64,000 nt of DNA, taken from NCBI GenBank assembly GCA_964506525.1, contig CAZDLA010000001.1, positions 155,047 to 219,046 of the forward strand, in the 5' to 3' direction. Position 1 is the first letter of the stretch, and each line of letters begins with the position of its first letter. The position numbers were made by a program, and so were the translations under genes. The notes beneath the pieces are model-generated. The model saw only the letters and a program-made list of their open reading frames with translations, did no database searches and was not told the origin of the DNA. This document shows positions 3,116 to 32,696 of the stretch, piece after piece. The stretch is from an uncultured Nitrospiraceae bacterium. GTDB taxonomy: Bacteria > Nitrospirota > Thermodesulfovibrionia > Thermodesulfovibrionales > UBA6898.

Positions 3116-3125
3116 AGTAGAAAAA

Positions 3126-5486: not shown

Positions 5487-5511
5487 TGCTTCTCCTTATG
5501 CATTTCTTGAA

Positions 5512-6390
5512 TTAATGTTTAAGCTTTTTGGCAACTTCAAGCAGATATTTCCCGAAGTCCTTTGCAAGCTCCTTATTCTTGAGGGCAAAATCCACGGTTG
5601 CCTTGAGATAACCAAGCTTGTCGCCCGCATCATACCGTCTGCCTTCAAAAAGATATCCGTATACAGGCCTTTTCTGAAGCAGCACACTAATGGCATCTGT
5701 CAGCTGAATCTCCCCGCCTTTGCCGGGCTTAATCTTAGCGAGAATATCAAAGATGTCAGGGGTCAGTATGTACCGACCGATGATAGCCATATTGGAAGGC
5801 GCATTTTCAGGATCAGGTTTTTCAACAAGGCTGTTGATCCTGAAGACATTGTCCCGCTCCTTCGCACCGCTGATGATTCCATACCGATTGACTTCATGAT
5901 TCGGCACCCGTTCCAGCGCAAGTATCGGACTCTTCAGTTTTCGGTATAATTTGATCATATCAAGAAGCAGCGGCTCTTCAGGGGGAATAATGTCATCGCT
6001 CAGAATGACCGCAAAGGGCTCGTCTTTCACATAAGGTTTAGCGCAAAGGATAGCATGACCGAGGCCGAGAGCATATCCCTGCCGGATATAGGCAATATTG
6101 ATCTCGCTCAGCCTGTTGATCTCCGCAAGAAGCTTTTCCTTACCGCTCTTCTTGAGTTTATCTTCAAGCTCAAAGGCATAGTCAAAATGGTCCTCAATAT
6201 TCCTCTTGTGCTTGCCCGTAATGATGATAAACTCCGAGATATCGCATGCTATAGCCTCTTCAACGCCATACTGGATCATCGGCTTGTCCACGATCGGCAG
6301 CATCTCTTTGGGAGAAGCCTTGGTTGCAGGAAGAAACCGTGTCCCAAGTCCGGCTGCAGGAAAAATCGCCTTTTTTATATCATCTGACAT
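5512..6390 (-). CDS. galU: UTP--glucose-1-phosphate uridylyltransferase
   Basis: 292 aa. N-terminal nucleotidyltransferase motif PAAGLGTRFLPATKASPKEMLPIVDKP and a GalU-type body (VEKP, IGRYILTP). Confidence 0.9.
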   Translation of the reverse strand: MSDDIKKAIFPAAGLGTRFLPATKASPKEMLPIVDKPMIQYGVEEAIACDISEFIIITGKHKRNIEDHFDYAFELEDKLKKSGKEKLLAEINRLSEINIAYIRQGYALGLGHAILCAKPYVKDEPFAVILSDDIIPPEEPLLLDMIKLYRKLKSPILALERVPNHEVNRYGIISGAKERDNVFRINSLVEKPDPENAPSNMAIIGRYILTPDIFDILAKIKPGKGGEIQLTDAISVLLQKRPVYGYLFEGRRYDAGDKLGYLKATVDFALKNKELAKDFGKYLLEVAKKLKH

Positions 6391-6549
6391 ATTTGTACCC
6401 CATAATGAAATTTCTTAATTATACCATAGATGAACAGGGGGATTTGGTTACTGGGCAAAATGGAATGCCAGCCATTCCTGCAACTCACTAATCCGTAAAA
6501 AAGCATCTTGAGGTTTTCACTACAACTATTTAGTCTTACGGAAAAAGAT

Positions 6550-6589
6550 TGACAAAAAGAAGGCAGGAGTTGCCTGTCAACTCCTGCCT
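6550..6589 (-). terminator. Rho-independent terminator downstream of the giant ORF
   Basis: Perfect 11-bp stem AGGCAGGAGTT / AACTCCTGCCT (6561-6571 / 6579-6589) with a 7-nt loop. On the minus strand it is followed by TCTTTTTGT. It sits 25 nt after the stop codon at 6614. Confidence 0.65.
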
Positions 6590-6613
6590 GGCTAAAGCTC
6601 AGCGCACTGAGCC

Positions 6614-9600
6614 TTAAGGCACAATCGTAAATGCCTCATCACTTGCATCAGAAGTCAGGGTTAAGCCCTTTGAATCCTTCAGCACAATCCTCACCTTACA
6701 GGTTGTCGGTGTTACTACCGTCGGCACTGTCCAGTCATAGAGACCGGGATTGCCCGTTATAGTTATAGCCGGTCCTGCAGGAGCGCATGGTGCTCCTGCA
6801 TTGGTGATGAATTCCACTGCTGCAGACGTTGGCGGCTTCTTCAGCGTGGCGGTATCCCAGAGAACCCGATACACTCTGCCTGATTTGAGATGTTCTCCAC
6901 CATTAGGATACATAAGCCAGACCAGATACATGCTGAAGGGGTCTGAGGTGTCTTCACCTATGACCCCTCTTGAAGCGTTGTATGCCGTTATCTTGAACTG
7001 CATGTTGTCCAGATTGGTCGCAGGGGCCTTCTTCATGCTCCAGCTGAATGAGGTGCCGGTGGATGTCTTTGGCAACTTGATCGCTGTCCATGCTCCTCCG
7101 CTGCCGTAGGATAGCCCTATGCTTGCGACTGTGGGGTCTTTTTCCCATCTGACCGTGTAAGGGGTTCCTGCTTTTATGTGCTCCCCTCCGGTCGGGCTCA
7201 GGAGTCTTACTATCGCAGGGGCTGATGGTGTGTATTCATATGCTCCCATGTCTGGTGCTATGCCCTTGGGTCTGGTTACACCAAGGATATCGTCTGCAGG
7301 TGCCCCTGAGGCTGTGCCTTTGTCTATACAGGGGGATATGGCATCAAGCCGGTAGTCATGGCCTGCAGTATTGAGGAACTCTGGGTCATAGCTGGTATTG
7401 CTGCCAAGGTTGGTGTATGTGCCGTTTCCTATGTTTGAGTTCTGTGCTCTTATCAGAGCGGTTCCACCGGTTGATGCACTGGAGTAGACGTCTGGACCAT
7501 TGGGGTCTGTATTGCCCCAGTTGATGTCGTTCTTCTCTGTTATGGTTACAGATCCTGAGCTTGAGGCTGTGGCATGTATGCCTCCGCCAGCTGTACCAGG
7601 GGTTGCTGTGTTGTCTGTAAGGGTGTTGTTGACCATGTTGACGGTTACAACGCTTCCTGTACCTGTTGCCGTTGCCTTGATGCCACCGCCGCTGTCGGTG
7701 GCGTTGTTGCCTATGATAAGGCAGTTCTGTATGGAAAGATTGATGGTTGCACTGCCTGAGGCTGAGGCATGGATGCCTGCACCGTCATCTGCACTGTTTG
7801 ATGAGATGATACAGTTTGAGAGGCTGATATCTGCCAAGCCTGAAGCAGGGGCGATGTTCATACCGCCGCCTGTAGAAGCATCCCCGTTGAAGAGAGTGAG
7901 GTTGTCGATGGTTACTGTGGCACTGGTTGTTATTGAGAGGACACTGCCTTCCCCGACTCCGTCGTTGTCCGTATCGCCATTGAGGATGGTGATACCTGGG
8001 TCTGCTGTCTGCGTGGTGAAGGTGTTGTTCCAGCCGCCAGAGAGATTCAGGGACTTGTTGAGAAGGATGTTCTGACGATAGGTGCCTTGGGCGATTCTCA
8101 GGGTATCACCAGAACCGGAAGCATCTATACCCTGCTGAACGGTCTGATAGTCGCAACCTAATGCGCAGACAGTTCTTTCTGTCCGGCTGTCATACGTCCT
8201 GCTCAGCTGCGATGCTGCTGTGTTGCCGTTGCTTGCAGCATCAACTGCCACTCCTGCTGCCACGTCGACTGTCACTGCTCCATTGCCTGCAGGTGTTACA
8301 TTGAACGTATAGGTCGTTCCACTACCGCTGAATCCACTGATCGAACCATTGCCTAATGTGACATCCCCACTCACAAACCCTGTAACTATCTTGCTGAAGG
8401 TCACTGTCACAGGTATTGGTGAGACATTCGTCGGATTGGCAGCTGATGAGGTTATCGTTACCGAAGGCTGAGCACTGTCATACGTCCTGCTTAGTTGCGA
8501 TGCTGCTGTGTTGCCGTTGTTGGCAGCATCAACTGCCACTCCTGCTGCAACATTCACTGTCACTGCTCCATTGCCTGCAGGTGTTACGTTGAACGTATAG
8601 GTCGTTCCGCTTCCACTGAATCCACTGATCGAACCATTGACCACGGTAACGTCGCCAGATACAAAATCGGTCACCGTCTCGCTGAAGGTCACGGTCACAG
8701 GTATTGGTGAGACATTCGTCGGATTGGCAGCTGATGAGGTTATTGTTACTGAAGGCTGAGTACTGTCATACGTCCTGCTCAGCTGTGATGCTGCTGTGTT
8801 GCCGTTGCTTGCAGCATCAAGCGCCACTCCTGCTGCCACGTCCACCGTTACCGCTCCATTGCCTGCAGGTGTTACGTTGAACGTATAGGTCGTTCCACTT
8901 CCACTGAATCCACTGATCGAACCATTGCCCACGGTAACATCCCCAGATACAAACCCTGTAACTGCCTCGCTGAAGGTCACTGTCACAGGTATTAGCGAGA
9001 TATTCGTCGGATTAGCAGCCGATGAGGTTATGGTTACTGAAGGTGCCACGGTATCAGAAGTCGTCAGATTGAAGTCTGTCTTTATACTATCCTCTTCTGC
9101 CAGATAAAATGACTCTGTCCTGCTGCCATATCCGGTGGCTGTAACATTGATATTGCACTGGCCTGATGCAACACCTTTTATATAGTAGCCATTCGGCGGC
9201 AAAACAGGCACGGTGATACCGTTTATCGTTACGATCGCATTGAGCAGAGGCTGATTCGTCAGCGCATCACGCAGATATCCGTAAACAAGTCCGCCCGTCG
9301 CATTTGTGTACGTAATCCTGAACCTGTTTGCATTGGAGCTCGTCACTGACATGCCCTTGTTGTCTATGGCCTCGACTTCCCAGTGATAATATTCGTTGAA
9401 TCTGAACAAGTCTGTTCCGTCAGCCCTCAGCTCCTTTGTTCCGTCCAGGGTAAACCACTCCCACCTGATCTGCTCATACCTCATGATCTCTGGGCCTTTG
9501 AACCCTGCATTGTCTTCATAGATTTTTATGGTATACGTCACAATATCTGCAACATCAGGGTCTGTGGACTTTGTCCATAAAAACGCCATGAGGCCGTCCG

Positions 9601-12600
9601 TGATAGTGCTGTTATTTTCTGGGGTAATCAGGCCGAAGGCCCCGGGCGCAAGGTTAGTTTCTGTGTTTACATACAGTGTCCCTGTAACTGGCGGCAGTAT
9701 GTTCTGGTTTCTGTCCTTCGCATAATAGTAGATGGTGTATTTGCCTGCCTCATCGAGCCCTGTAGCGCCGCTTGAGGGTATTGCAAAGTCCCACCTGCTG
9801 CCTTCTGCCCCTGTGTACGCAATCTTCTTCAATTCTAACGAAATCTGTCCCGTGCCGCCTGTGCCTGTTATGTTATACGACGGCTTCTTCAACTCTATCC
9901 ATGTCGTGTCCACGTACGCAGGATCTATCATGCCGAAAGCGGTTTTGCCGCTGCCGGACATGACTGTAATCGTGGGCATAATCTGATCCCACTTCACCAT
10001 CGCAGGGTTAGTGCCGAGGCCCAGGCTTATACCCGAGGCCAGACCACCGTCTTCCTGTCCCTTAACATTCATAGTACTGCCAACACCGTCTCCATTGTCA
10101 TCAAGCAGAGGGTTTTGGCGTGAGCCCACGCCGTTGTTCTGCTTGGTATTGCCATTATTGCTCGGGCAATTAGTCGTACAGGGGAGCTGCTGCCTCGTTG
10201 TCGTTGCCGCATCCTTAAAGGCGTTGATCAGCGTTTCCCCCTGAGACAGGCTACTAAACAGATAGTACACAAAGAACTCCCCATAGGTTGTTGAGCCGAC
10301 AGTCGGGCCCTGCAGGGACTGCTCATCTTCGGAACTGCTTGTGATTATTATCCTTTTCTTGCCCGGCTTTGACAGGGCGCTTACGAACTTGCCTGAATAG
10401 CAGAAACCGTTGATTATTATAATTTTGAACTGATCGCGGCCAGGAATTGAAGTGTCGTTTTGGATCGATGCCTCAAGATCGGTTATCCAGCTGTCAAGCT
10501 CTGAAGGCGTGATGTATTCGTCAGTAACCTGGTCAGGCACAGGCTGATCAATCAAAAATCTGCCTTCGCCAGCGTCGCTGCCGTGATCCATCAATACAAG
10601 GTAAAGCGGAGCAACTCCATTGTCTTTGATCCGGTTGAAAGCCCACGTTTTGATCGCAGCAGCAACATTCTGCTTTGTTGTCAGAGCGTCCACAATGCCC
10701 GTATAACCGGGGCCCGTCTCATAGCTCATATAGTAGATATTGTTATTAATCGGGTCGTCCTTAAAGCCACGGCTCAACATCTTCTGCCTGATATCGTCAA
10801 GGCTGCGGGTATAACTTGCCCTGTATGTGTTGTTGCTGTCGCCTTCAAGCAGAATTGCATACCCTGCTGAATTGGCAACATTAAAGTCAATTGACGCGGA
10901 TTCGCTCATCGTAAAGTTGCTGTTTCCGGCAAATGTCGCTTTTGCATACCAGATTCCGGTCTTGGTGCCGAATTGATTAAACGGCACATTATATCTGCCG
11001 TACGCATCAGTCATTGCGCTTACACTGTGCTTGATGCTTTCCGGGTCAGTAAATTCAATGGTAACCGGCATATTGAGAAGTGAACCATTAGGCACTGTTG
11101 TGGCAGTCCTGAGTGTGCCGGTTGCTGTTATCGAGCCAGTTGGAGATATACTTGCAGCGTTAAGAGACATTGAAAGACTTGTATCCACCCTTGTTACCGC
11201 GAAGTTAGCGGATGCTGTTTTTGAGTTATACAGGCCGTTTCCGCTGAAAGTTGCTGTAACACTCCAATTGCCTGCAATGTCGATCTTTGCAGCATCCACA
11301 AATGTCCCATAATTACCGCTGCTGTTTGTTGACGTACAATCGCCGCTTACCGGAGTAGAAGAAGGAGCGGTGAAACTGAGGCATATCTCGGCAGGGTAGA
11401 CCGAGCCGCCTGTCGATGCGTTAGTCAGTCTGCCGGCTATGCTGACGCCCTGACCAAAAGACGAACTTTGGGTCGGAGTAACCGTAAGGAGCGTATTACT
11501 TAAATTAGGAGCCTTCACGGTTATGGTGTGAGTTCCAAGCCCCCAACTCTCGCTCGGTGAATCCGTAAATCCCGAAGCAGTGATAGTATAAATCCCGGAA
11601 TTGCTATCTTTATAGAGAAAAGTCGCTGAGCTTGAATCTGTTTCAATAAACGGCAGAAGTGAACTGAAATAATCTCCCCCCGTCGAGAAAAGGCCGGTCC
11701 CTGAAGACGAAAATACATATATCTGTGTACGTGAGGTTGCCTTACGCGTCACATCATAATCGTCTATGATCTTCGCCTTGAGCCAGTCTGACGCCACTCC
11801 CTGCTGGACCTCCCATAAATATGAAGGGTTGACACTTTCCACTACGAGCCTTCTGTAGTTAGGGTCGTAAATTCTCATGGAATACTGCTTTGATGCGCTG
11901 TGGCTGGTGCTATCCGTAACCTGTATCGTAAAGATATAGGTCCCTCTCGTTGTCGGTGTTCCGGTAATATTCCCATCAGTGTTAAGGGTCAAACCAGCTG
12001 GCCATGAGCCTGTTTTTGTAAAGGTGAACGGCCCAATGCCGCCCGCTATCACGACAGATGACGAAAATAAAGTGCCTTTGACTCCTGTGCCATCTCCTAT
12101 GACAGTTGTGGTGATGCTGAGCGGTGCTGCCACGGTTACGATTACGTCCCTGAACGCTGTCAGTCCGCCGCCCGTGGCAGTTATTCTGACCGTGTAAGAA
12201 CCCGGTATCGTTGTAGTGCCAGGCGTAAAGGAAAGTGTGGCTATAACGCCGGCAGGTGTCGGTGTAATCATTGTCGGAGATATACTTATGCCAGCATTAA
12301 GAGGCACTGTACCATGCCAGGCATAGGTGAGAGATACAGCCTGGTCGAACCCGCCAAAAGATGTCAGGGCAAGATTCGCCTGCCGGGTTTCCCCCTGGAC
12401 CACACTGAAGTTGTTGGCAGTAATTGTAAAGCCCTGAATGGTATACGTTGGTGCAACAACTCCACCCGGATTACCATTGCTGTCAATTGCAAAGAATTTA
12501 AGGGTTGTGGTTGTGGATATGGTTATCGGTGTTGCATAGACAGTTGAACCTGCGGTCGGCTCGCTGCCATTGGTAGTGAAATAGATTGTCGCGCCCTGCT

Positions 12601-21600: not shown

Positions 21601-24600
21601 GATTCACATTAGAGCGTACAGGCCAGACATAGTGAGAGTTACTTTTGCTTTCGTATGCGAGTAATCTATCAGTATTGATATCCGTATGAATCAACCATGC
21701 AGAAGACGTATCTCCATTAAAAATGCTTGTACTTGACGACCAATATACATTTGATTGAACATTAGTAAAGCCCTGTCCATTCAGCCATGCAAAATTATTA
21801 GATACTTCAATATTACTAAGGCTATCCAGCTCATTAATATTCGGCAGATACCAGTCGTTATGTCCAAGGTAGTTATTCGTGTTTAAACATGCCACATAAT
21901 CAAGCGCGGCTGTCCAGGTCTTTGTACCGCCGGTGCAGGTCGGTGCACCAGGAACGGTCGGAGTGCCGCCATCCTTGCTCCACTCAAGACCGGTGAGTTT
22001 ATCCGCAATGATATTGCTGTTATCGGTTGAAGCCACAAACCTCGGGCTTGGCCATGCCGCACCTGCCTGAATCTCCCCATCCTGCCCCGTGCCAGCGCAA
22101 GAGGCCAGTTCCGTCCCAGCAGCGTTATAACACTTCGTCTGTCCTGTCCGGGGCAGCTGGATCATAGGAATGGGAGTGAAGAGTTCGGCAGAACTGTGAT
22201 AAACTTCTACATCAGTACGTCCACCCGCAATCAATACTTTTCCATTTGAGAGTAGCGTAACTGTATGCATATCTCGCGCAATATTCATGTTGCTGGTAGC
22301 ACTAAATGTTCCCGCAGTGGGATCATATAACTCCGCCCAACCGTTCCCAGAACTATTGCATCCTATAAATACCTTCCCTGACGAAAGTAAAATTGCGTCA
22401 TCACCAAGACAATTTCTTCCAACACTCATAGAGCCTGTTAAACTGAAAGTTCCAGAGCTTGGATCATATAGTTCTGCCGAACCCATGTTTGCACCATTCC
22501 ATCCGCCTGCTACTAATACTTTTCCATTTGGAAGCAAGGCGGCTGCATGCGCATATCGTGCATTGTTCATATTGCCCGTTGCAGTCAGTGTGTTTGTATT
22601 TGGGTCAAATATTTCTGCCGTGCTGACACCAGAACTGCCAAGTCCACCCGCAATTAAAACTTTCCCGTTAGATAGCAAGGTGGCTGTATTTTGTTGTCTT
22701 TCACTGCTAAAATTGCCTACAACTGTAAAAGTACCGCTACTGGGGTCATACAACTCTAACGCAGTCACGGCAGAACTTGAAGATGACCCTCCACCCGTAA
22801 TCAACACCTTCCCGTTGGGTAAAAGCGTTGACATATGATAATGCCTTGCAGTATTCATGGCCCCTGTATTTGTGAATGTCCCAGTTGCGGGGTTGTACAA
22901 TTCCGCAGTAGCAACAGAGGCAGTGCCATTGTGTCCTCCTGTAATGAGCACTCGGCCGTCAGGCAGACGTGTTGCTGCATGCCCATTTACAGCTTGATTC
23001 AGATTCCCCGTTGAGGTAAATATGCCTGTAACAGGCTCATACAATACTGCAGAGCTTAAATTAGTACTGCCATTCCATCCCCCTGCAATCAACGCTTTAC
23101 CATTTTCCAAAAGGGTTGCCGTGTGATAAGCTCTTCCCGTGCCCATACTCCCCGGCGCCGTCCAGTAGCCATTGCCATAATTATTAGCTGCAAAGTTGGC
23201 AGTCACGTTTCTGGCCAGATCCATCGTAACCGTGCATGTGCCAATGCCTGTGCAGCCTTCACCAGACCAACCGGTAAAGACATTACCGCTGTCGGCTGTT
23301 GCAGTGAGCGTTATTGATGTGCCGCTTGCGTATGACGCAGTGCCGGTGTTGCCGGACCAGTTGATCGTGCCGGTATTAGGCGTGACAGTGCCGGTACCTG
23401 TGCCGGTTTTGGTAGCAGTGAGAGTGTATGTCGCGTACAGAGTCTGAATTTCAGCAGGCGATAGGGCGCGATTGTAGATACGGACTTCGTCAATGGCGCC
23501 GTTCCACCAATCATAATTACCCTCACTGTAGCCAATCGCCAAAACTGCGCTGGTAAAGGACCTTAGCGTATAGGGAAACGACTGACTATTATCCAGTTTG
23601 CCGTCAAGATATACATTTACCTGGCTGCCATCAAATACTGTCGCAACATGATGCCAGTTATTGTCATTGACCCGTGTGTTTGTGCCCACAGAGGCAACCA
23701 CGGAGGTGGTGGCGGCATAAAATTGTGGTCTGCGTGGATATGAAGTATATAACTCAAGATTTAATGCGTAATAAGGGTTTTGAGATCCTGACGAAAAAAC
23801 ACCTGCAATCGTGGGAGTTGCATAACCGCCAGTGCCCTTACTGTTAATCCATGCCAAGACAGTGACCTGTGATATTGATGCCTTTGAATCAACCGTGCTG
23901 TAAATTTTATTTGATGATCCATTAAAGTTATAAGCCATATTCGTATTCCCAAACCTGTCCGTTGTCAGCGTTGCACCGTTGACTGTGCCATGATTGCCAT
24001 TGCCGCTTTCGTCATTGGCATTGCCGTTGAAAGGGTAATAGGCGACAAGGCCATAGCTTGTGTTGTTAACAGTCCCGCCTCGGACGGGCCAGACGTAGTA
24101 GCTTCCGGATTTAGCGAATTCATTGCCCAGATGGAAACTGCTTGTATGAGAATGCCACGCATATGACGTTTTTCCGGCAACAGTTGTCGACAGCCAATAA
24201 TAGTTAGACTGCAGGTTTGTGAAAGGATGATCGGACTGTAATGCTGGATAGTTCAGTTCATGGTTCGCCAGGCTTCTAATCTCCTTCCGATTAGGCAGCC
24301 TCCAGTCTCTGAAACCAAGATAATTGTTTGCATTCAGACATGCGACATAATCCAGTGCCCCCTGCCATGTTTTAGTTGTCGCAGGTCCGCACGCACCCGG
24401 CCCCGGCGCGTTGGCATCCTTTGTCCATATAAGCCCCGTAAGGCTATCAGTTACCGTAATACCGCTGTCCACAAAGCGAGGAGAAGGCCAACTAACACCT
24501 TTCTGTAATGCACCATCGTCATTAGCCGCATATTGTGTTGTCTGTCCAGTCCGCCATACTGCCGCAGGCCCCGTTGAAACCGCACGAACAGGCCAAACGT

Positions 24601-26248
24601 AATATGCTTCGGTCTTTCCGTGGCCGCCTACATAGCCACTATAGCCACTGTCCATATAGATGCCCCATGCATTGGTAGTTCCACCGATGTTGGTTGTCGA
24701 TGACCAATAGAAAATAGTTTGAACGCCTGTGAATGGGTGGTTTGCCGGAAGAGGAGGAGTAGACCTGTCAGCATCTACAAGACTCTCCAGCTCATTAATA
24801 TTCGGCATTCTCCAGTCATTATGCCCAAGGTAGTTGTTTGTGTTCAGGCAAGCCACATAATCGAGCGCGGCCGTCCAGGTCTTTGTGCCGCCGGTGCAGG
24901 TCGGAGTTCCTAAAACGGTCGGCGTGCCGGCATCTTTAGCCCACTCAAGGCCAGTGAGTTTATCCTGTATGATATTGCTGTTTTCGCTTGAGGCCACAAA
25001 TCTCGGGCTCGGCCATGCAGCGCCCGCCTGTATCTCTCCATCCTGTCCCGTGCCTGCGCATGATGCAAGCTCAGTCCCAGCTGCGTTATAACACTTCGTC
25101 TGTCCTGTGCGTGGAAGCTGGATCATAGGAATGGGGGTGAAGAGTTCGGCAGAGGAAAGCTTTGTACTGCCAGCGTCAATTCCTCCAGCAACAAGCACAA
25201 TACCATTGAGGAGATTTGCTGCTATGTGGCCACCGCGTGTGCTTGTCATGCTTCCGGTCGCGATAAATGTCCCGGTGTTCGGATCATACAGCTCCGCTGA
25301 ACTAAGAGCTACAGTACTGCTGTAGCCTCCTGTAACCAATACCTTGCCATTAGAAAGAAGTGTTGCTGAGTGATAAGTCCGTTCGATATTCAAGCTCCCT
25401 GTCGCAGTAAAAACCCCGGTAATCGGATCATATAATTCTGCCGAACTAAATGGCGTACCATTGCTGCCACCTGCTATCAGAACCTTGCCGTTAAACAGAA
25501 GTGTTGCTGTTGCAAGAGTCCTTCCAATACTTGTATTTCCTGTTGCAGTAAAGGTTCCTGTATTAGGATCATATAAATCTGCAGAAGTAGTTACAGAACT
25601 TCCCCCGCTAAATGCTCCATTTACAACAAGCACCTTACCATTTTGAAGCAATGCAGCCGCATGTAAATATCTTGCAGAGTTCATGTTCCCGGTAGCAGTA
25701 AATGTCCCAGTGCCCGGATCATACAATTCTGCCGAGCTATGTCTGGTTGAACCGTTCCACCCACCAGTAATAAGCACCTTGCCATTTTGCAGAAGCGTTG
25801 CCGTGCTACCCTGTCTTCCAATACTCATGCTACCCGTAGTCGAAAATGTACCTAACCCCGGGTCATACAATTCTGCTGTGACGGGATAGCCTGAACTGCC
25901 ATACCCCCCTGTGATTAATACCTTACCATTCGTCAGAAGTGTCGCCTGAAAATCATATCTTGCATAGGTCATGCTGCCCGTGGAAGTAAATGTGCCGGTG
26001 CCCGGATCATACAATTCTGCTGAGTTGAGGGAACTGCCGGAGCTGTTGCCGCCTCCAACTACAAGCACCTTGCCGTTTTGAAGCAATACAGATTGAGAGT
26101 ATGGCCGCGCAGTGCCCATACTCCCCGTTGTCGTCCAGTAGCCGTTATCGGCGGCAAAGGCGTCCTTCGACGGGCTCAGAATGACAACTGAAAGAACGGA
26201 GATGACAAGCAGTATTGCAACCAGACAGTTTCTTTTGATGGACCTCAT
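6614..26248 (-). CDS. Giant secreted multidomain surface / adhesin-like protein (6,544 aa)
   Basis: Single uninterrupted 19,635-nt ORF with GGAGG just upstream of the ATG. Sec-type signal peptide (MRSIKRNCLVAILLVISVLSVVILSPSKDAFA|AD). Modules recognised by eye, N to C: Kelch-like propeller; 2x DUF1566 (TGLEW...DWRMPN..EL..L...YWSST...VWPVR); LamG / concanavalin-like (LVAYYPFNGNANDESGNGN...IDEVRIYNRAL); InlB-B-repeat-like domain; a second Kelch-DUF1566x2-LamG copy; PD40/TolB-like propeller; Ig/FN3-like domains; a Kelch_1-type propeller; chitobiase-C-like (IYYTTNGSDPT) domains x2; a third LamG; He_PIG-like Ig x2; more DUF1566 and Kelch; a clan-CD peptidase-like domain; a CarboxypepD_reg-like domain; 3 tandem Ig-like repeats; a right-handed beta-helix; 2 C-terminal Ig-like domains. 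Confidence 0.9.
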   Translation of the reverse strand: MRSIKRNCLVAILLVISVLSVVILSPSKDAFAADNGYWTTTGSMGTARPYSQSVLLQNGKVLVVGGGNSSGSSLNSAELYDPGTGTFTSTGSMTYARYDFQATLLTNGKVLITGGYGSSGYPVTAELYDPGLGTFSTTGSMSIGRQGSTATLLQNGKVLITGGWNGSTRHSSAELYDPGTGTFTATGNMNSARYLHAAALLQNGKVLVVNGAFSGGSSVTTSADLYDPNTGTFTATGNTSIGRTLATATLLFNGKVLIAGGSNGTPFSSAELYDPITGVFTATGSLNIERTYHSATLLSNGKVLVTGGYSSTVALSSAELYDPNTGTFIATGSMTSTRGGHIAANLLNGIVLVAGGIDAGSTKLSSAELFTPIPMIQLPRTGQTKCYNAAGTELASCAGTGQDGEIQAGAAWPSPRFVASSENSNIIQDKLTGLEWAKDAGTPTVLGTPTCTGGTKTWTAALDYVACLNTNNYLGHNDWRMPNINELESLVDADRSTPPLPANHPFTGVQTIFYWSSTTNIGGTTNAWGIYMDSGYSGYVGGHGKTEAYYVWPVRAVSTGPAAVWRTGQTTQYAANDDGALQKGVSWPSPRFVDSGITVTDSLTGLIWTKDANAPGPGACGPATTKTWQGALDYVACLNANNYLGFRDWRLPNRKEIRSLANHELNYPALQSDHPFTNLQSNYYWLSTTVAGKTSYAWHSHTSSFHLGNEFAKSGSYYVWPVRGGTVNNTSYGLVAYYPFNGNANDESGNGNHGTVNGATLTTDRFGNTNMAYNFNGSSNKIYSTVDSKASISQVTVLAWINSKGTGGYATPTIAGVFSSGSQNPYYALNLELYTSYPRRPQFYAATTSVVASVGTNTRVNDNNWHHVATVFDGSQVNVYLDGKLDNSQSFPYTLRSFTSAVLAIGYSEGNYDWWNGAIDEVRIYNRALSPAEIQTLYATYTLTATKTGTGTGTVTPNTGTINWSGNTGTASYASGTSITLTATADSGNVFTGWSGEGCTGIGTCTVTMDLARNVTANFAANNYGNGYWTAPGSMGTGRAYHTATLLENGKALIAGGWNGSTNLSSAVLYEPVTGIFTSTGNLNQAVNGHAATRLPDGRVLITGGHNGTASVATAELYNPATGTFTNTGAMNTARHYHMSTLLPNGKVLITGGGSSSSSAVTALELYDPSSGTFTVVGNFSSERQQNTATLLSNGKVLIAGGLGSSGVSTAEIFDPNTNTLTATGNMNNARYAHAAALLPNGKVLVAGGWNGANMGSAELYDPSSGTFSLTGSMSVGRNCLGDDAILLSSGKVFIGCNSSGNGWAELYDPTAGTFSATSNMNIARDMHTVTLLSNGKVLIAGGRTDVEVYHSSAELFTPIPMIQLPRTGQTKCYNAAGTELASCAGTGQDGEIQAGAAWPSPRFVASTDNSNIIADKLTGLEWSKDGGTPTVPGAPTCTGGTKTWTAALDYVACLNTNNYLGHNDWYLPNINELDSLSNIEVSNNFAWLNGQGFTNVQSNVYWSSSTSIFNGDTSSAWLIHTDINTDRLLAYESKSNSHYVWPVRSNVNLALGSSVISQTGQRTSYYGADDGALQRGATWSLPRFTDNLDGTVTDSLTGIVFSKDANSLGPVTCGQATTKTWSQALAYVNCLNQNAFSGFSDWRLPNRNELHSLVDYSKYNPSLLSGHPFANLLGSDGQSNYYWSSSTCGFNKNWAWTIRLNDGHLTFGAKSSGNYVWPVRGGTILNPLTLTDGLVAYYPFNGNANDESGNGNNGTVNGATLTTDRFVNSNKAYSFDGVNDYIRSNTTIAINTNQATYSAWVNFRSSGSDVKQILEFKLGAGVIFLETDNSTKIRFGMSDGITGSTLFSPEALPLNSWHYVSGTYDGSLQKLYIDGVKVAEASLSINVLSSPINIGKDSEFNYQYIDGLIDDIRIYNRALSNAEIQSLYGETAQVRIAYVKNNDIWVTNETGATPQQLTSTAAIESNPSFSKDGSGIAFTSDSSGRNEIWSMTASGADLRQITNNHTTYPADNARWSADGQWIYFNSAASGDGEVWKIKSDGTGTAQQLTNVVGYNTQTVAMSRGGTNAAYVRGTEGNDASNKLYTSNTDFTSPFEIQANYAPHSPIYSFDDSKLLYSSTGGNIHIINNNGYGDQLVATLGSGSANDWYPSGSKVLVSTLGNLYWINTDGTNQTLITQGSSGSVGLAWGNDTVAPTILSATSTTANGGYKSGSAVNITLNFSEPVTSTGLTINLNSGTSITTGAFSLGSSWSGTYTVGVGQTAAALSISSISGTITDSATNSRTNPTIPASQNIADSKSIVIDTTAPTGVSAGANQTKNAQFTQTATATDTNAMTHSWTKQAGPGTVTFGAATALSTTISASATGTYTIRFTATDIAGNSTYSDMTLTWDITAPTAPTVTSTTALTNNQKPTWTWTPGGGGNGTYRYKLDNSDLTTGVTETAALNFTPASNLTEGLHTLYVQERDDVGNWSISGTKLITIDITGPTSGGSGTWTTKASMPVARPGNTVTGIDSLLYAVGGTNYSCGAYSTLEAYDPATNTWAAKTSMPSPRWAPSSAAVSGILYVVGGTDGCYNPNPGMNTIEAYDPATNTWTTKAPMPTTRRNFAVGAVNGILYAVGGISNGGGIIATVEAYDPATNTWSTKAPMPTARYNFGVGVVNGILYAVGGANYSVYLATVEAYNPATDAWTTVAPMSTGRSGHAVGVVNGIIYAVGGYNGVTPTTDSSEAYNPVTNTWSPAAPMPTTRQDVVGGVVNNILYVVGGGNASGVLLTVEAYTPASDAISINSNAASTNSASVTLTLSATDANGVSKMMVSNDPAFTGAPEVDYATSSPWTLAPGPDGVRTVYVKFKDNANNWSSVYNDTITLDTTGPVVTPSVAGGTYTTTQTVTLTCNDGTGTGCGNIYYTTNGSDPTTGSTVYSTPIIISATTTLKFFAVDSLGNPGSIVTAAYTIHGFNITNTSNISTGLVAWYPFNGNANDESGNGNNGTVNGATLTTDRFGNANNAYGFDGINDRVDVPGTNLSPALDDTKNFTIAHWVRLNQDVMSNFVLGYSQGLGNSMPVGAFQLSLKAYPAYGPGPYLYLDDNIGCNLTVGASALAVGQWQHVVTVWNAATHSTNIWVDGVNQAVTKQCDAVMSAKARTGTWTIGAYCPGSVPGSCDQQFLNGSLDDFRIYNRALSVSEIQALYGIADTINAVQGDTRSADLKLSSYGGYSQTADLTYAWVSTTPAGAAVNITPSSITPTPSGATTSVSFTAGAGTPVGTYTLRVTATSGSIIQTGDILVNVSAPLVISTTTLASGIKGQTYSPTFSATGGVGAYTFIVTSGTLPTGLSLNANGSFSGTLSARGTFTFTIQAADTDSHTDSKQYTVRVYDTAYRKLVLESTLWSIEQNSASGWIYAKVYDDYDALVTMASPTGIDITSTSGTGLFSADGASWSGIFSPDIATGASSKRFLYKDSTVNTFTITAAGVPGTSSEQWATGSHAITITAVQGSDTTPPSTVITGNPVAVTNSTSATFTFSANEPSTFECNLDSGGWAVCPSPQDYSGLSVAAHTFQVRAKDTAGNYDLTPASYSWTIDQTGPTGAGFGVIAKTGQTTSYGTRDDGALQAGLDYTSPAFTDNGSSVTDKVYGITWNKNAWSDVVSIPQGIAVPSPRFTDNNNGTVTDNLTGLLWLKNANCFGVQPWSAALSSANNLASGSCGLSDGSAAGDWRLPNILELASLPTNYISTPAAWLNGQGFSNVNAQANLYWSSSTYAYATNNARGFSMANGNLGDGVKTAGSPSVWPVRGGFSNSAGTGVTINYGAASTNSTSVTLSLSASDANGVSKMMVSNDSNLTDAVEENYVVSKAWTLLSGEGEKTVYAKFKDTAGNWSSVYSDTITLDLTVPTLELSAPSATLTSNNNVTYTTTYTGADTITLAPGNITLNKTGTADGTVAVSGTGNTTRTVTISGIIGNGTLGISLASGTGRDAAGNPTAAAGPSATFTVDNAAPTAPTVTSATALTSNNKPTWTWSPNGGGNGTFRYKLNSSNLISGATETTTVSFTPLTGLSDGSHTLYVQERDDTGNWSTSGSYTVTVDTTGPLGSSIGTGSFAATGSMNAPRTEHTATTLSSGKVLLVGGEDTGEHAVNTAETYDPASGNFTASGNMSLQRVVHTATLLSNGDVIIIGGQIPYVGFHTSSELYDPVTNAFTASGSMTNKRGVHSATLLSNGNVVVIGGYNESNTNPQVAEIYNSSTGTFTQTGSMVTPRDSHTATLLPNGRILITGGVARGFGYLSSAELYDPATGLFTATGSMSVARESHRAILLSNGTVLVSGGSNSTDYLSSAEIYNPATGTFSATGSLNVARRIFDVTSLPNGKILITGGNASSGASMSAFNSSEIYDPATGTFSMTGNMNYARTAQKSVLLLNGKVLITGGADGPWGNTKHSSAELYTPGADTILISNGAATTNSTSVSLALSATDPSGVATMMISNDASFTGASEVAYATNPGPWTLASGPDGIRTVYVKFKDTLGNWSVVYSDDITLDTTGPTVTPSVPAGTYTSAQTVTLSTEQGATIYFTTNGSEPTAGSTVYATPITISTTTTLKFFAIDSNGNPGGVVAPTYTIQGFTITANNFSVVQGETRQANLALTSFGGFDQAVSLTYAWHGTVPLNAGISISPTMITPTPAGVIATLSFTPGTTTIPGSYTVRITATGGGLTAFRDVIVTVAAPLSITTTVIGDGTGVKGTLFSSSVVIAGGIGPFTFTKTGSWPAGLTLNTDGNITGTPTTRGTYIFTIQVTDSTSHSASKQYSMRIYDPNYRRLVVESVNPSYLWEVQQGVASDWLKAKIIDDYDVTRKATSRTQIYVFSSSGTGLFSTGGDYFSSLLPFIETDSSSATFLYKDSNSGIYTITASGFTDSPSESWGLGTHTITVKAPNLSNTLLTVTPTQSSSFGQGVSIAGRLTNASTGGSVYPAEICLSFTAPSSTPVSGDCTSTNSSGNYGTFVDAAKIDIAGNWSVTATFSGNGLYNSKTASANFAVTRVDTSLSMSLNAASISPTGSITATGTLRTATTVPNGSLLNMPVTIEFTDPESIKHSVSAMTDAYGRYNVPFNQFGTKTGIWYAKATFAGNSNFTMSESASIDFNVANSAGYAILLEGDSNNTYRASYTRSLDDIRQKMLSRGFKDDPINNNIYYMSYETGPGYTGIVDALTTKQNVAAAIKTWAFNRIKDNGVAPLYLVLMDHGSDAGEGRFLIDQPVPDQVTDEYITPSELDSWITDLEASIQNDTSIPGRDQFKIIIINGFCYSGKFVSALSKPGKKRIIITSSSEDEQSLQGPTVGSTTYGEFFVYYLFSSLSQGETLINAFKDAATTTRQQLPCTTNCPSNNGNTKQNNGVGSRQNPLLDDNGDGVGSTMNVKGQEDGGLASGISLGLGTNPAMVKWDQIMPTITVMSGSGKTAFGMIDPAYVDTTWIELKKPSYNITGTGGTGQISLELKKIAYTGAEGSRWDFAIPSSGATGLDEAGKYTIYYYAKDRNQNILPPVTGTLYVNTETNLAPGAFGLITPENNSTITDGLMAFLWTKSTDPDVADIVTYTIKIYEDNAGFKGPEIMRYEQIRWEWFTLDGTKELRADGTDLFRFNEYYHWEVEAIDNKGMSVTSSNANRFRITYTNATGGLVYGYLRDALTNQPLLNAIVTINGITVPVLPPNGYYIKGVASGQCNINVTATGYGSRTESFYLAEEDSIKTDFNLTTSDTVAPSVTITSSAANPTNISLIPVTVTFSEAVTGFVSGDVTVGNGSISGFSGSGTTYTFNVTPAGNGAVTVDVAAGVALDAASNGNTAASQLSRTYDSTQPSVTITSSAANPTNVSPIPVTVTFSETVTDFVSGDVTVVNGSISGFSGSGTTYTFNVTPAGNGAVTVNVAAGVAVDAANNGNTAASQLSRTYDSAQPSVTITSSAANPTNVSPIPVTVTFSKIVTGFVSGDVTLGNGSISGFSGSGTTYTFNVTPAGNGAVTVDVAAGVAVDAASNGNTAASQLSRTYDSRTERTVCALGCDYQTVQQGIDASGSGDTLRIAQGTYRQNILLNKSLNLSGGWNNTFTTQTADPGITILNGDTDNDGVGEGSVLSITTSATVTIDNLTLFNGDASTGGGMNIAPASGLADISLSNCIISSNSADDGAGIHASASGSATINLSIQNCLIIGNNATDSGGGIKATATGTGSVVTVNMVNNTLTDNTATPGTAGGGIHATASSSGSVTITEKNDINWGNTDPNGPDVYSSASTGGTALIRAQNSNIGNGTYTNLGSNTSYDPEFLNTAGHDYRLDAISPCIDKGTASGAPADDILGVTRPKGIAPDMGAYEYTPSAPAIVRLLSPTGGEHIKAGTPYTVRWEKDPTVASIGLSYGSGGAWTAIKLPKTSTGTSFSWSMKKAPATNLDNMQFKITAYNASRGVIGEDTSDPFSMYLVWLMYPNGGEHLKSGRVYRVLWDTATLKKPPTSAAVEFITNAGAPCAPAGPAITITGNPGLYDWTVPTVVTPTTCKVRIVLKDSKGLTLTSDASDEAFTIVP
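8186..9049 (-). repeat. 3 x 288-bp near-identical tandem coding repeat (three 96-aa bacterial Ig-like domains) inside the giant ORF
   Basis: The unit PSVTITSSAANPTN(I/V)S(L/P)IPVTVTFSE.VTGFVSGDVT.GNGSISGFSGSGTTYTFNVTPAGNGAVTV.VAAGVA.DAA.NGNTAASQLSRTYDS.Q is repeated three times. Landmark strings recur at an exact 288-nt offset (e.g. GAAGGCTGAG at 8463 and 8751; GTCATACGTCCTGCT at 8189 and 8477). Confidence 0.9.
10290..10880 (-). other. Clan-CD (C13 legumain / gingipain-like) cysteine peptidase-like domain embedded in the giant ORF
   Basis: The segment AGYAILLEGD...APLYLVLMDHGSD...KIIIINGFCYSGKF...RIIITSSS shows the alpha/beta His...Cys dyad layout of clan CD. The His codon is at 10583-10585 (about aa 5222) and the Cys codon at 10400-10402 (about aa 5283). 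Confidence 0.5.
21824..22192 (-). repeat. Intragenic dispersed repeat, copy B (Kelch / DUF1566 junction), paralogous to 24785-25153
   Basis: High nucleotide similarity by eye to 24785-25153 at a constant 2,961-nt (987-codon) offset. Both encode ELFTPIPMIQLPRTGQTKCYNAAGTELASCAGTGQDGEIQAGAAWPSPRFVAS... Confidence 0.75.
24785..25153 (-). repeat. Intragenic dispersed repeat, copy A (Kelch / DUF1566 junction)
   Basis: See copy B. GCCACATAAT occurs at 24852 and 21891, and AGAGTTCGGCAGA at 25141 and 22180, both at an offset of 2,961 nt. Confidence 0.75.
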
Positions 26249-26343
26249 AACCCCTCCAAGGATTCAGAAAATTACTTTCTATTTGTTATCTATAGACGAA
26301 ACGAGAGACGCTTTCTTACATGTCCAAGGAATATTTTTTCGTG

Positions 26344-26380
26344 AAAACAAAAAAACCCATGCCTCTATGGCTATGGGTTT
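26344..26380 (-). terminator. Terminator / attenuator-like hairpin between the outer-membrane barrel gene and the giant ORF
   Basis: The minus strand reads AAACCCATAGCCATAGAGGCATGGGTTTTTTTGTTTT: an imperfect GC-containing stem followed by a T-run. It lies about 200 nt after the stop at 26576 and about 95 nt before the ATG at 26248. Confidence 0.45.
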
Positions 26381-26575
26381 GTCAGTTCAAATATATATAA
26401 ATATCTTGTCATCTACTTCGGCAGCCCTGCAATCCTTTTACATCCCCCAAGGACCAGAAGCTTTGCGCCCTGCCCTTCCAGGCAGTTTGCTCTTATCGGT
26501 AGCGATTCTGGCTAAAAGAGTATCACAACCTGCTAATAATCCGCAATAAATAAGGCATTTGAGTTTATAATAATC

Positions 26576-27904: not shown

Positions 27905-28012
27905 AAAAACCTCCTCATCCTTTGATACTTATTGGGTTGCTTAGACTGTAGTCTGCCAGGTATAGGCTATAGACTAAACACCTAAATACTACACACCTGT
28001 TATACCCAACCA

Positions 28013-32685: not shown

Positions 32686-32696
32686 AAGGGGCTCCT

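Follow-up and report, generated by a model that had tools for sequence, protein, structure and literature searches.

What does a single protein of 6,544 residues do for an uncultured Nitrospiraceae bacterium of the Thermodesulfovibrionia (Nitrospirota), and how would so large a product be switched on, exported and kept at the cell? The question is raised by a 64-kb stretch of contig CAZDLA010000001.1 (assembly GCA_964506525.1), hereafter the window, whose minus strand carries a 19.6-kb open reading frame (ORF) that we call the giant ORF, and its product the giant. Our best explanation, to which we assign a probability of roughly 60%, is that the giant is a Sec-exported, lectin-rich surface protein with an embedded C13 (legumain-type) protease, that it is the cargo of a conserved gene cassette, and that its gene is gated by a riboswitch. 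The initial annotation of this DNA described the ORF and its domains. It missed the riboswitch with its terminator, the Sec signal, the legumain identity of the peptidase and the conserved neighbourhood.

The giant gene and its leader

The gene, its signals and its leader comprise the following features.

6614..26248, minus strand: giant ORF, 6,544 aa plus stop, ATG start (ORF listing, translation)
26251..26257, minus strand: Shine-Dalgarno sequence GGAGGGG, 2 nt before the ATG (read from the sequence)
26153..26248, minus strand: Sec-type signal peptide, aa 1-32, ...KDAFA/ADN (inferred cleavage site)
6561..6589, minus strand: intrinsic terminator of the giant gene, a 12-bp stem (seven G-C pairs) followed by a T-run, 3' of the stop codon
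26417..26501, minus strand: c-di-GMP-I (GEMM-I) class riboswitch aptamer with A at position 20 (Rfam RF01051)
26349..26380, minus strand: leader hairpin AAACCCAUAGCC-AUAGA-GGCAUGGGUUU, then a U7 run (RNAfold minimum free energy and centroid structures)

The giant ORF looks like a genuine, selected gene and not an assembly artefact. One uninterrupted frame of 19.6 kb and 6,544 residues had been described, and the coordinates are exact: the translation of 6614..26248 on the minus strand contains a single stop codon, at its end. At about 50% GC, the chance of 6,544 codons remaining free of stops is about (61/64)^6544, or about e^-314. The closest internal DNA repeats are three 288-nt units with 89% identity, and all others reach at most 83%. 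There is thus no exact long repeat at which an assembler could collapse or mis-join the sequence. Paralogous internal segments have diverged mostly at synonymous positions (dS 0.37-0.82, dN/dS 0.06-0.18). For instance, windowed self-BLAST pairs aa 365-479 with aa 1352-1466 at 94% protein and 85% DNA identity (dS 0.82, dN/dS 0.06), and the three Big_12 copies have pairwise dN/dS of 0.15-0.18. This pattern suggests old duplications under purifying selection on the protein. The view of a selected gene is based on these ratios, together with the lack of any DNA repeat above 89% identity. Furthermore, aa ~4437-5709 are collinear with blocks of 1,100-1,300 aa on three independent metagenome contigs, at 41-42% identity.

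The protein has the marks of an exported product. Its N-terminus, MRSIKRNCLVAILLVISVLSVVILSPSKDAFA|ADN, contains the sole hydrophobic segment of the whole chain (aa 3-32, ending in AFA|A). Its composition is rich in T, G, S, A and N and acidic, as expected for an extracellular beta-rich protein.

By its sequence, the aptamer in the 5' leader is a bona fide member of the GEMM-I class with the GEMM-Ib signature (A20). It matches RF01051 over the full model (positions 1-87) at 60.4 bits, against a gathering score of 35 (E 2.5e-9). It lies on the same strand as the giant gene, between the upstream FadL-like gene and the giant ORF and 169 nt upstream of the ATG at 26248. The GNRA loop, the GCGCAAAGC core and the 3' GCCGAA are all kept. 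In the RF01051 alignment, the consensus G just 5' of GCAAAC is replaced by A. We map the replaced residue to G20 of Vc2, which reads one guanine of cyclic di-GMP (c-di-GMP). The equivalent of A47 (in GCGC-A-AAGC) and the C92 region (the 3' GCCGAA) are present, and position 20 is A, not G, so the canonical c-di-GMP-selective set of contacts (G20/A47/C92 in Vc2 numbering) is incomplete. The change from G20 to A defines the GEMM-Ib riboswitches, which sense cyclic GMP-AMP (cGAMP); the Vc2 G20A mutant binds both c-di-GMP and cGAMP, and natural A20 aptamers range from cGAMP-selective to bispecific (PMC6140456). With A at position 20, the predicted ligand here is c-di-GMP, 3',3'-cGAMP or both.

The leader hairpin is a probable intrinsic terminator, and hence expression platform, as judged from its predicted fold. 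It starts 36 nt downstream of the aptamer, does not overlap it, and ends about 100 nt before the ATG. It escaped a consensus terminator scan, a bulged A in the stem being the probable reason. We tried to assign the polarity of the switch by minimum-free-energy folding, growing-transcript folds and duplex tests. In some folds, the 3' strand of the aptamer (GGAUUGCAG) forms an 8-bp pairing with CUGACAAACC at the base of the terminator. In the ON switches pilM and Bc2, the terminator lies in or beside the aptamer and the two folds compete (PMC9262584, PMC4933901). The OFF switch Cd1 can form its terminator alongside the aptamer, and both compete with an antiterminator (PMC9262584). The layout in the window appears to be of the Cd1 type, and the switch may be ON or OFF.

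No sigma-70-like promoter was found on the minus strand between the leader hairpin and the ATG. The heptamer UCCUUGG occurs three times in the leader (26249-26501, minus strand), namely in the P2 loop of the aptamer, about 25 nt past the terminator and overlapping the Shine-Dalgarno sequence. The copies have the same sense and therefore cannot pair with one another. The 64-kb window contains no GGDEF gene. A protein with GAF and HD_5 (HD-GYP-type) domains, a candidate cyclic-dinucleotide phosphodiesterase, is encoded at 49306-50430 (minus strand), near the island described below but outside it, which suggests that the genome has enzymes of second-messenger turnover. In the open-access literature, to which our literature searches were confined, we found no relevant description of GEMM riboswitches in Nitrospirota.

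The legumain-type peptidase and the conserved neighbourhood

The last quarter of the giant contains the domain that ties it to a larger protein family.

9974..10876, minus strand: C13 legumain-like cysteine peptidase domain, aa 5125-5425 (PF01650 in relatives, AlphaFold2 (AF2)/Foldseek, alignment)
10583-10585, minus strand: catalytic His5222 (family alignment)
10400-10402, minus strand: catalytic Cys5283 (family alignment)
9062..11503, minus strand: conserved C13 block, aa ~4916-5729, made up of two Ig-like domains, the peptidase, two Ig/FN3-like domains and a CarboxypepD_reg-like domain

Structural modelling indicates that aa 5125-5425 adopt the legumain fold (C13, clan CD) with an intact His-Cys dyad. 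The region has no Pfam match at E <= 1, PF01650 included. Sequence searches of the PDB with it gave no useful match, and structure prediction was needed for this reason. Three relatives match PF01650 at 26-33 bits (cut-off 22.8) and are annotated as C13 peptidases. The AF2 model of the domain has a mean predicted local distance difference test score (pLDDT) of 77 and a predicted template modelling score (pTM) of 0.84. Its top 50 Foldseek matches in the PDB are all legumains or plant peptide asparaginyl ligases, with E from ~1e-9, and its template modelling (TM) scores against these enzymes are 0.54-0.63 over both normalisations. His5222, followed by Gly, and Cys5283 are invariant in an alignment of six sequences. 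Across 155 copies of the domain in the wider family, the His is conserved in 152, the following Gly in 153 and the Cys in 149; the copies also retain invariant Arg and Gln residues, one of each, and a DDNGDG motif. Because the dyad persists across these copies within a legumain fold, the C13 domain is very probably an active enzyme. Family-wide conservation of the dyad also suggests that the giant is probably not a passive adhesin. What had been annotated as a "peptidase-like" domain is thus borne out as a peptidase fold, while its legumain type and intact dyad had gone unnoticed.

The C13 block seems to recur in thousands of large exported proteins. An exhaustive profile search with the peptidase returned 7,142 representative clusters, 1,227 of them at E <= 1e-30, and the best matches are almost all interior or C-terminal domains of proteins of 1,000-6,464 aa. 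Most relatives with a visible start open with a Sec-type signal peptide (by eye). In most of them the C13 block stands at the C-terminal end, with a dockerin-like double EF-hand tail of 60-70 aa behind it; the proteins mostly end 60-140 aa past the block, with the tail pattern GDxNGDG...DxNxDGKI. Examples of such tails are found at ~11700-11905 of locus L115 and ~4420-4613 of locus L147 (GDLNGDG...DVNGDGKIG). No cohesin partner for the tails was identified in loci L082-L160. The open frames of two relatives reach at least 6,326 aa (L113) and at least 4,663 aa (L114).

A conserved multi-gene neighbourhood around C13-block proteins is statistically supported. It emerged from 79 loci that a metagenome scan returned with the C13 motif PL[LI]DDNGD as its sole seed; 80 loci selected by Lon (1.36 Mb) served as controls. 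The C13 block of ~800 aa (aa ~4920-5735) is the sole part of the giant common to nearly all 79 loci. In 17 of the 79 C13-selected loci, at least one homologue of the genes next to the giant, here called partner genes, is encoded on the same strand, and none of the 80 controls has one (Fisher p = 2.6e-6). Apart from one weak match to the cyclase domain, the controls gave no partner match. In the window, all five partner genes lie upstream of the giant on its strand.

33391..33990, minus strand: extracytoplasmic function (ECF) sigma factor, first cassette gene (Sigma70_r2/r4; TIGR02937, 91.6 bits)
32697..33356, minus strand: soluble anti-sigma-like protein with a weak zf-HC2 match (PF13490, E 0.0016; NCBIfam anti-sigma, E 0.004)
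29989..32685, minus strand: cyclase-CHAT membrane protein (Pfam, hydropathy)
28013..29992, minus strand: exported protein with TPR, Glucodextran_B/Big_13 Ig-like and C-terminal CsgG-like domains, signal peptide, no lipobox (Pfam)
26576..27904, minus strand: FadL-family outer-membrane barrel of the 14-strand type, signal peptide (PF03349, E 9e-18)

The barrel is the partner found most widely. Of the 79 loci, 12 have it, 11 as a full-length homologue (36-53% identity) and one as a fragment where the contig ends, compared with none of the 80 controls (Fisher p = 1.4e-4). Homologues of the TPR/Ig/CsgG-like protein occur in 10-11 of the 79 loci (0/80 controls), those of the cyclase-CHAT protein in at least five, of the ECF sigma factor in four and of the anti-sigma-like protein in three. 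All partner homologues share the strand of the ORF that encodes the C13 block. In seven loci the barrel gene is the immediate neighbour of the big ORF, 10-160 nt away, on its upstream side in L085, L121, L129 and L130 and on its downstream side in L115, L151 and L126. The full partner set is present in L115 and L151, and L109 and L147 have all but the FadL-like gene. No description of bacterial systems that combine C13 peptidases with FadL-like or dockerin components was found in the open-access literature that we searched.

The partners comprise envelope and regulatory genes. Homologues of the ECF sigma factor adjoin C13-block genes in L109, L115, L147 and L151. Upstream of its gene in the window, a TTGACA-N17-TAATAT motif can be seen by eye, and a search for ECF-type promoter motifs returned only a loose AAC-N17-CGT, likewise upstream of this gene. 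The anti-sigma-like protein contains no hydrophobic segment and has homologues in L109, L115 and L147. The cyclase-CHAT protein combines cytoplasmic class III cyclase and CHAT protease domains, a transmembrane helix (aa 606-628) and a periplasmic CsgG/LpoB/FlgT_C-like domain, with homologues at 42-45% identity in L085, L109, L115, L147 and L151. In L151, a group II intron (RF02005, 102 bits) lies at the end of this homologue (19369-19631, plus strand). The genes for the cyclase-CHAT protein (29989-32685) and the TPR/Ig protein (28013-29992) overlap by 4 nt. Cross-matches reveal homology between the CsgG/LpoB-like C-terminus of the TPR/Ig protein and the periplasmic part of the cyclase-CHAT protein, a hint that sensor and structural protein share a binding target or bind one another. 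The barrel gene lies directly upstream of the riboswitch. Its product scores 64.4 bits against Pfam Toluene_X (cut-off 29.7), and its highest sub-threshold NCBIfam scores are for BamG and PorV/PorQ rather than FadL. Its placement is secure at the level of the FadL/PorV/BamG superfamily, not of a subfamily.

Domain architecture, attachment and rival explanations

The remainder of the giant consists largely of repeated modules.

20459..26149, minus strand: supermodule of a 7-blade Kelch propeller, two Lcl_C/DUF1566 domains and LamG, present twice, aa 34-940 and 1023-1930 (Pfam, self-BLAST)
19679..20446, minus strand: PD40/TolB-like beta-propeller, aa 1935-2190 (PD40, E 2e-14; DPPIV_N; TolB TIGR02800, 81 bits, partial)
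11504..19678, minus strand: two diverged copies of a unit of Ig, Big_13, Kelch, Ig, CHB_HEX_C, (LamG), Ig, He_PIG and Ig, aa ~2191-3580 and 3794-4915 (Pfam; self-BLAST, 45-69%)
8186..9061, minus strand: three tandem Big_12 Ig-like repeats, aa 5730-6021 (PF19078, E 5e-42; 288-nt units 89% identical)
7229..8185, minus strand: right-handed parallel beta-helix ending in a choice-of-anchor Q motif, aa 6022-6340 (NF041518)
6617..7228, minus strand: two C-terminal Kre9_KNH-like FN3/Ig sandwiches, aa 6341-6544 (PF10342, 28.1 bits, cut-off 24.6)

The giant appears to have been built by segmental duplication of binding modules (Kelch, PD40, Lcl_C and LamG, with Ig/FN3 spacers). Ten overlapping segments of the protein were scanned against Pfam and NCBIfam, and internal copies were sought by windowed self-BLAST. 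These profile searches back nearly every module that the initial annotation had listed: four Kelch propellers (aa ~34-375, 1023-1365, 2490-2775 and 4085-4440), one PD40/TolB-type propeller, three LamG domains (Laminin_G_3), and chitobiase-C-like (CHB_HEX_C_1) and He_PIG Ig domains, two of each. The "about six" DUF1566 domains resolve into five full Lcl_C domains (the same family) and one partial copy; PF07603 covers five stretches, scoring 205.5, 185.6 and 75.4 bits per segment (cut-off 34.9). The scans add a Big_13 domain, a K319L-like PKD domain and the three Big_12 domains. An InlB-B-repeat-like Ig domain lies between the two Kelch/Lcl_C/LamG supermodules. In the Big_13/Kelch/CHB_HEX_C/He_PIG unit, LamG is found in the first copy only, and the fifth Lcl_C domain (aa 3581-3790) separates the two copies.

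The C-terminal modules also hold up. The pectate-lyase-like beta-helix is matched at its end by the choice-of-anchor Q model NF041518 (aa 6298-6339; 41.8 bits, cut-off 25), and its homologues bear PF13229/PF02415 and are named "choice-of-anchor Q" or "right-handed parallel beta-helix". The final 200 or so residues had been read as two Ig-like domains, and the AF2 model of the last 206 aa indeed shows two FN3/Ig-like sandwiches (pLDDT 87.7), for which the Foldseek matches are tandem FN3/Ig pairs. PDB sequence searches with the C-terminal region gave nothing useful. The same tandem Kre9_KNH-like pair closes stand-alone proteins of ~650 aa elsewhere (three examples).

The giant C-terminus carries no recognizable anchor. 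No LPXTG sorting signal, PEP-CTERM, C-terminal domain (CTD) of the type IX secretion system (T9SS), transmembrane segment or terminal barrel was found there, in agreement with the earlier reading that an anchoring motif is missing. The choice-of-anchor Q motif is not trailed by a sorting signal either: the two Ig/FN3 sandwiches follow, ending in ...EAFTIVP, and PF18962 is absent, although one relative (P0117) bears it. Known classes of giant surface protein can be set aside on several grounds. A sortase-anchored MSCRAMM (microbial surface component recognizing adhesive matrix molecules) is rejected because LP.TG strings are internal only (aa 378 and 1365), at the starts of Lcl_C domains. An RTX adhesin of the type I secretion system (T1SS), such as LapA or SiiE, is rejected by the N-terminal Sec-type signal, the complete lack of GGxGxD motifs and neighbours that are not T1SS components. 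A type V or inverse autotransporter is rejected by the lack of any barrel family match and by an architecture of signal peptide and Kelch at the N-terminus and Ig/FN3 at the C-terminus. T9SS cargo is rejected because the giant has no T9SS CTD (PF18962), and a PEP-CTERM protein because there is neither PEP-CTERM nor a hydrophobic tail.

The FadL-family barrel is a candidate dock for the giant and thus a candidate answer to the missing anchor. This proposal draws on the co-occurrence of the genes and on the precedent of BamG, a FadL-family barrel that anchors a surface lipoprotein (PMC12611786).

An adhesin-like function of the giant can be suggested by analogy. In Lcl of Legionella pneumophila, the Lcl_C domain is C-type-lectin-like and binds glycosaminoglycans, and Lcl itself is a surface-displayed peripheral protein, an adhesin and a biofilm factor (PMC11162425). 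Lcl and the giant share the DUF1566/Lcl_C domain, a Sec signal in a diderm and the lack of a covalent anchor. Lcl is a trimeric, collagen-like lollipop of ~42 kDa with one DUF1566 domain, exported by the type II secretion system, whereas the giant has 5-6 DUF1566 domains in 6,544 aa. It is this analogy that points to surface display and glycan binding. The carbohydrate or cell-surface binding proposed in the initial annotation fits the Sec signal, the Lcl_C, LamG, Kelch and Ig domains and the riboswitch, with binding itself a prediction; prey capture, which was proposed alongside, finds no specific support.

Taken together, these features suggest the following mechanism. Transcription of the cassette would start in the promoter region that precedes the ECF sigma gene. 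Before it enters the 19.6-kb giant gene, the polymerase meets the GEMM-I riboswitch and the terminator hairpin, at which transcription would stop or continue depending on whether c-di-GMP and/or 3',3'-cGAMP is bound. The giant, which carries the signal peptide described above, would be exported by Sec and held non-covalently on the surface, most likely through the FadL-family barrel and/or the TPR/Ig protein, as their co-occurrence suggests. There it would present multivalent lectin-like modules to glycans, particles or cells, as its domain families imply. The embedded C13 enzyme, with its conserved dyad, may process the giant or a partner, for example in maturation or release. The CHAT/anti-sigma/ECF trio may regulate the cassette, for which the DdvA-DdvS system offers a precedent (PMC11506125).

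A bolder version of this mechanism is tentative and on balance unlikely. C13-block protein, barrel and TPR/Ig/CsgG-like protein might together form a so far undescribed, T9SS-independent system that displays very large Sec-exported proteins on diderm cells, with the legumain/GPI8-type enzyme of the cargo itself acting in cis at the barrel in sortase-like processing, attachment or release. The ECF/anti-sigma/cyclase-CHAT module would then report on the status of the envelope, and an A20 (cGAMP-capable) GEMM element captured in this lineage, possibly an OFF switch, would gate the 19.6-kb cargo gene only.

Several results weigh against the reading of the giant as a riboswitch-gated surface protein served by a conserved cassette. 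The giant lacks the dockerin-like tail of its relatives and runs 815 aa past the C13 block, and with these extra residues in place of the tail its attachment may differ from theirs. Partner genes are present in 14 of the 53 C13-block loci with visible flanks, about a quarter, so the link is not obligatory. The barrel stays below threshold in NCBIfam, at 74 versus 250 for BamG, 49 versus 90 for PorV/PorQ and 26 versus 585 for FadL. The candidate antiterminator pairing is no better than in shuffled controls (171 of 500 shuffles are as good). The GEMM element is absent, by Rfam, from nine related partner-bearing loci; in addition, a riboswitch regular expression found no match in any of the 79 C13-selected loci, and Rfam found no riboswitch in six Lon-selected loci of relatives. 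From the nine loci, the riboswitch looks like a lineage-specific insertion at an otherwise tight junction between the barrel and cargo genes. A second assembly of the giant gene was not found by protein search, neighbour look-up or a mid-ORF metagenome scan. Among the best 120 matches of the N-terminal 1,022 aa to 5.8 billion proteins, coverage of the query never exceeds 40%; an exact look-up with the FadL-like neighbour turned up a single Logan contig, of 3.1 kb; the mid-ORF segment had no match in the metagenome scan; and no orthologue with the full architecture was found in these searches. Finally, the synonymous codon usage of the giant gene correlates with that of core genes at r = 0.76, compared with r = 0.91 for the other island genes and r = 0.94 between halves of the core set, and its GC3 is 0.49 against 0.55 in core genes. 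Such deviant usage fits low expression or foreign origin.

How far do these and other observations favour a different account? The last two could be taken as signs of a chimeric assembly or of a dead gene, as could the metagenome-type assembly and the repetitive architecture. We find this barely credible for a 19.6-kb frame that would stay open by chance with a probability of about e^-314, that has intact start and stop signals, DNA repeats of at most 89% identity and paralogous segments under purifying selection, and that shares a collinear block of 1,100-1,300 aa with three independent contigs. The results on the leader bear on another possibility, that the riboswitch-like element does not regulate the giant, either because the aptamer is decaying or because the hairpin ends the FadL-like operon and the giant has a constitutive promoter of its own. 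The lack of a significant antiterminator would fit, as would the related loci, which have FadL-to-cargo gaps of 10-155 nt and no riboswitch, and the ~100 nt from hairpin to ATG leave room for a promoter. Yet no sigma-70-like promoter was seen there, the full-model aptamer scores 25 bits over the gathering score with its GNRA loop, core and 3' GCCGAA intact, and the proven Cd1 switch likewise has an aptamer followed by a terminator that does not overlap it (PMC9262584). We give this possibility little credence.

Other accounts accept the gene and give its product a different task. Instead of a cell-bound adhesin, the giant might be an extracellular enzyme or "fishing" complex that is released to acquire nutrients, in which the C13 protease and the pectate-lyase-like beta-helix do the work and the lectin, Ig and propeller modules target polymers or debris in the manner of carbohydrate-binding modules. 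Conservation of the dyad across the C13 family agrees with this, as do the beta-helix homologues, which include pectate-lyase and polysaccharide-lyase-like families (PF13229), the frequent occurrence of CHB_HEX_C and LamG in glycoside hydrolases, the lack of a covalent anchor signal and the dockerin-like tails of the relatives, a feature of cellulosomal enzymes too. However, the two candidate catalytic regions make up only ~10% of the chain, no catalytic family of glycoside hydrolases or lyases scored above threshold, the NCBIfam name of the choice-of-anchor Q helix marks it as typical of surface proteins that are anchored, and the giant gene is linked to that of an outer-membrane barrel. We therefore regard release for nutrition as unlikely. 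A role in cell-cell interaction (predation, epibiosis or symbiosis), like that of the giants of Omnitrophota or of green-sulfur epibionts, seems to us quite doubtful. Size and location in a strain-specific island are compatible with it, and the embedded protease recalls the MARTX CPD, the clan CD protease of a self-processing toxin. Giant genes are tied to such lifestyles in two preprints (bioRxiv 10.1101/2023.11.21.568195, 10.64898/2026.03.19.712371). Against it, the profile scans found no toxin, RTX, peptidoglycan-hydrolase or pore-forming domain, and the genes nearby serve the envelope and regulation, not immunity or a secretion system.

Known systems, the island and significance

The riboswitch-gated surface protein proposed here has partial counterparts in several known systems. 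The leader resembles that of Bc2-Cap/CbpA of Bacillus thuringiensis (PMC4933901, PMC7423583), in which a GEMM-I aptamer and an intrinsic terminator likewise lie in the 5' leader of a gene for a large, repeat-rich surface adhesin with a signal peptide. Bc2-Cap regulates by transcription attenuation, which is also predicted here. Bc2 is a proven ON switch with termination at ~121 nt and a terminator near the aptamer, whereas the two elements are separate in the window. Cap is an LPXTG-anchored MSCRAMM of a Gram-positive bacterium; the giant belongs to the Nitrospirota (taken as diderm), has no sortase signal, consists of other domains and includes a protease. With the GEMM-Ib riboswitches of Geobacter (Gs1761, pilM) and the bispecific Cbe 1-2 of Clostridium beijerinckii (PMC6140456, PMC9262584), the aptamer shares the GEMM-I fold, the adenine at Vc2 G20 and, by prediction, transcriptional control. 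Aptamer and terminator are mutually exclusive in the pilM ON switch, whereas here both can coexist, as in the Cd1 OFF switch of C. difficile.

The combination of barrel, clan CD peptidase and large surface protein also has precedents. In the T9SS attachment complex, FadL-like PorV/PorQ act with the clan CD peptidase PorU. The gingipain/HagA polyproteins of Porphyromonas combine a signal peptide, a clan CD protease and Ig-like or adhesin modules, and undergo proteolytic processing. These polyproteins have a C25 peptidase and other adhesin domains, depend on T9SS and are much smaller; the giant has a C13 peptidase. With the T9SS attachment complex and the BamG of Bacteroidota (PMC12611786), the locus shares a FadL-family barrel genetically tied to large surface proteins and the involvement of a clan CD peptidase. 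The giant differs in having no T9SS CTD, there are no T9SS genes in the window, and the peptidase is C13, not C25-like, and lies inside the cargo. The parallel is suggestive, and the putative functional link draws on gene co-occurrence.

The Lap system (LapA/LapG/LapD; in Desulfovibrio vulgaris Dvh, PMC13090378) and SiiE (PMC6272769) are likewise giant repeat-rich adhesins; c-di-GMP and a dedicated cysteine protease control how they stay at the surface, and an outer-membrane partner of their own is encoded with them. Those proteins use T1SS, have RTX-type C-termini and lack a Sec signal. In contrast, the giant has a Sec signal, no GGxGxD motif and no adjacent ABC, membrane fusion protein or TolC genes. 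Furthermore, c-di-GMP acts through a protein receptor in the Lap system and, by prediction, through RNA here.

The regulatory trio can be compared with CHAT-linked control of ECF sigma factors, as in the type III-E craspase-RpoE system. In DdvA-DdvS of Myxococcus (PMC11506125), an ECF sigma factor, a zinc-finger-type anti-sigma factor and a CHAT module are also encoded together. Unlike in these systems, the CHAT domain in the window lies in the cytoplasm, in one polypeptide with a nucleotide cyclase and a periplasmic CsgG/LpoB-like domain; the anti-sigma-like protein is separate and soluble, and the regulated genes would be envelope or surface genes, not defence genes.

The cassette and the giant together make up an island beside a tRNA gene.

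6445..34221, strand not applicable: 27.8-kb variable island, ECF sigma gene to giant ORF (blastn against relatives)
34222..34308, minus strand: tRNA-Leu(TAA), island flank (ARAGORN; Rfam tRNA, 53.9 bits)

The giant is the last gene of the island, the order being ECF sigma, anti-sigma-like, cyclase-CHAT, TPR/Ig/CsgG-like, barrel, riboswitch and giant. The Lon encoded beside it is 94% and 90% identical to that of two metagenome-assembled genomes of Thermodesulfovibrionales/Nitrospirota. In the closest relative (L002, Lon 94%), window positions 7..6445 are collinear at 82% (blastn; gene order NTP-transferase-Lon-AIRS-MiaB) and the tRNA matches 34222-34279, with 1.3 kb between the flanks where the window has 27.8 kb. 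In two further relatives (L008 and L011), 26-35 nt separate the tRNA from the NTP-transferase gene. The giant has no tblastn homologue in 81 loci (the 80 Lon-selected loci and L001), and this supports the interpretation as an island. No integrase or att repeat was found at its ends. In L002, an int-alpA RNA (RF02996, 43.6 bits), of a family named for int (integrase) and alpA genes, lies about 2 kb from the same tRNA-Leu (5734-5799, minus strand), which suggests that the site is an insertion hot spot.

Other genes of the window lie beyond the tRNA. Two PAS/GAF sensor histidine kinases are encoded on the minus strand, a hybrid with a receiver domain (40636-43305) and one with a HAMP domain (50761-54054), and a CheR methyltransferase on the plus strand (61041-61934). 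Two paralogous cofactor-independent phosphoglycerate mutase-like genes (PhosphMutase and Metalloenzyme domains) lie within 10 kb of each other (37537-38745, minus strand; 46660-47868, plus strand), and a transfer-messenger RNA (63283-63627, plus strand; Rfam, 193.8 bits) encodes the tag peptide ANNELALAA.

Giant surface proteins are not rare, and a giant adhesin-like gene alone would be ordinary; it is the context that adds value. In one survey, 580 prokaryotic genomes yielded 3,732 genes of more than 5 kb; a second survey counted over 41,000 UniProt proteins longer than 5,000 aa (PMC11573180), and a c-di-GMP riboswitch in front of an adhesin gene is established by Bc2-Cap (PMC4933901). The locus appears to depart from this known kind in its A20 aptamer in Nitrospirota with a Cd1-like layout, in the position of that aptamer inside an operon and before the cargo gene only, in a very large cargo family marked by an embedded legumain-type enzyme, and in the link of a subset of that family to a barrel and an ECF/CHAT module.

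Environmental bacteria commonly have giant surface proteins, and how Sec-exported giants without T1SS, type V secretion, T9SS or a sorting tag cross the outer membrane and are retained there is largely unexplained. This locus provides a testable lead. It adds a lineage of Nitrospirota to those in which GEMM-I-class riboswitches bear the cGAMP-type A20 signature, and a riboswitch placed within an otherwise tight operon would meter only its most expensive gene. If the ligand is cGAMP, the known range of riboswitch-based cGAMP signalling would be wider.

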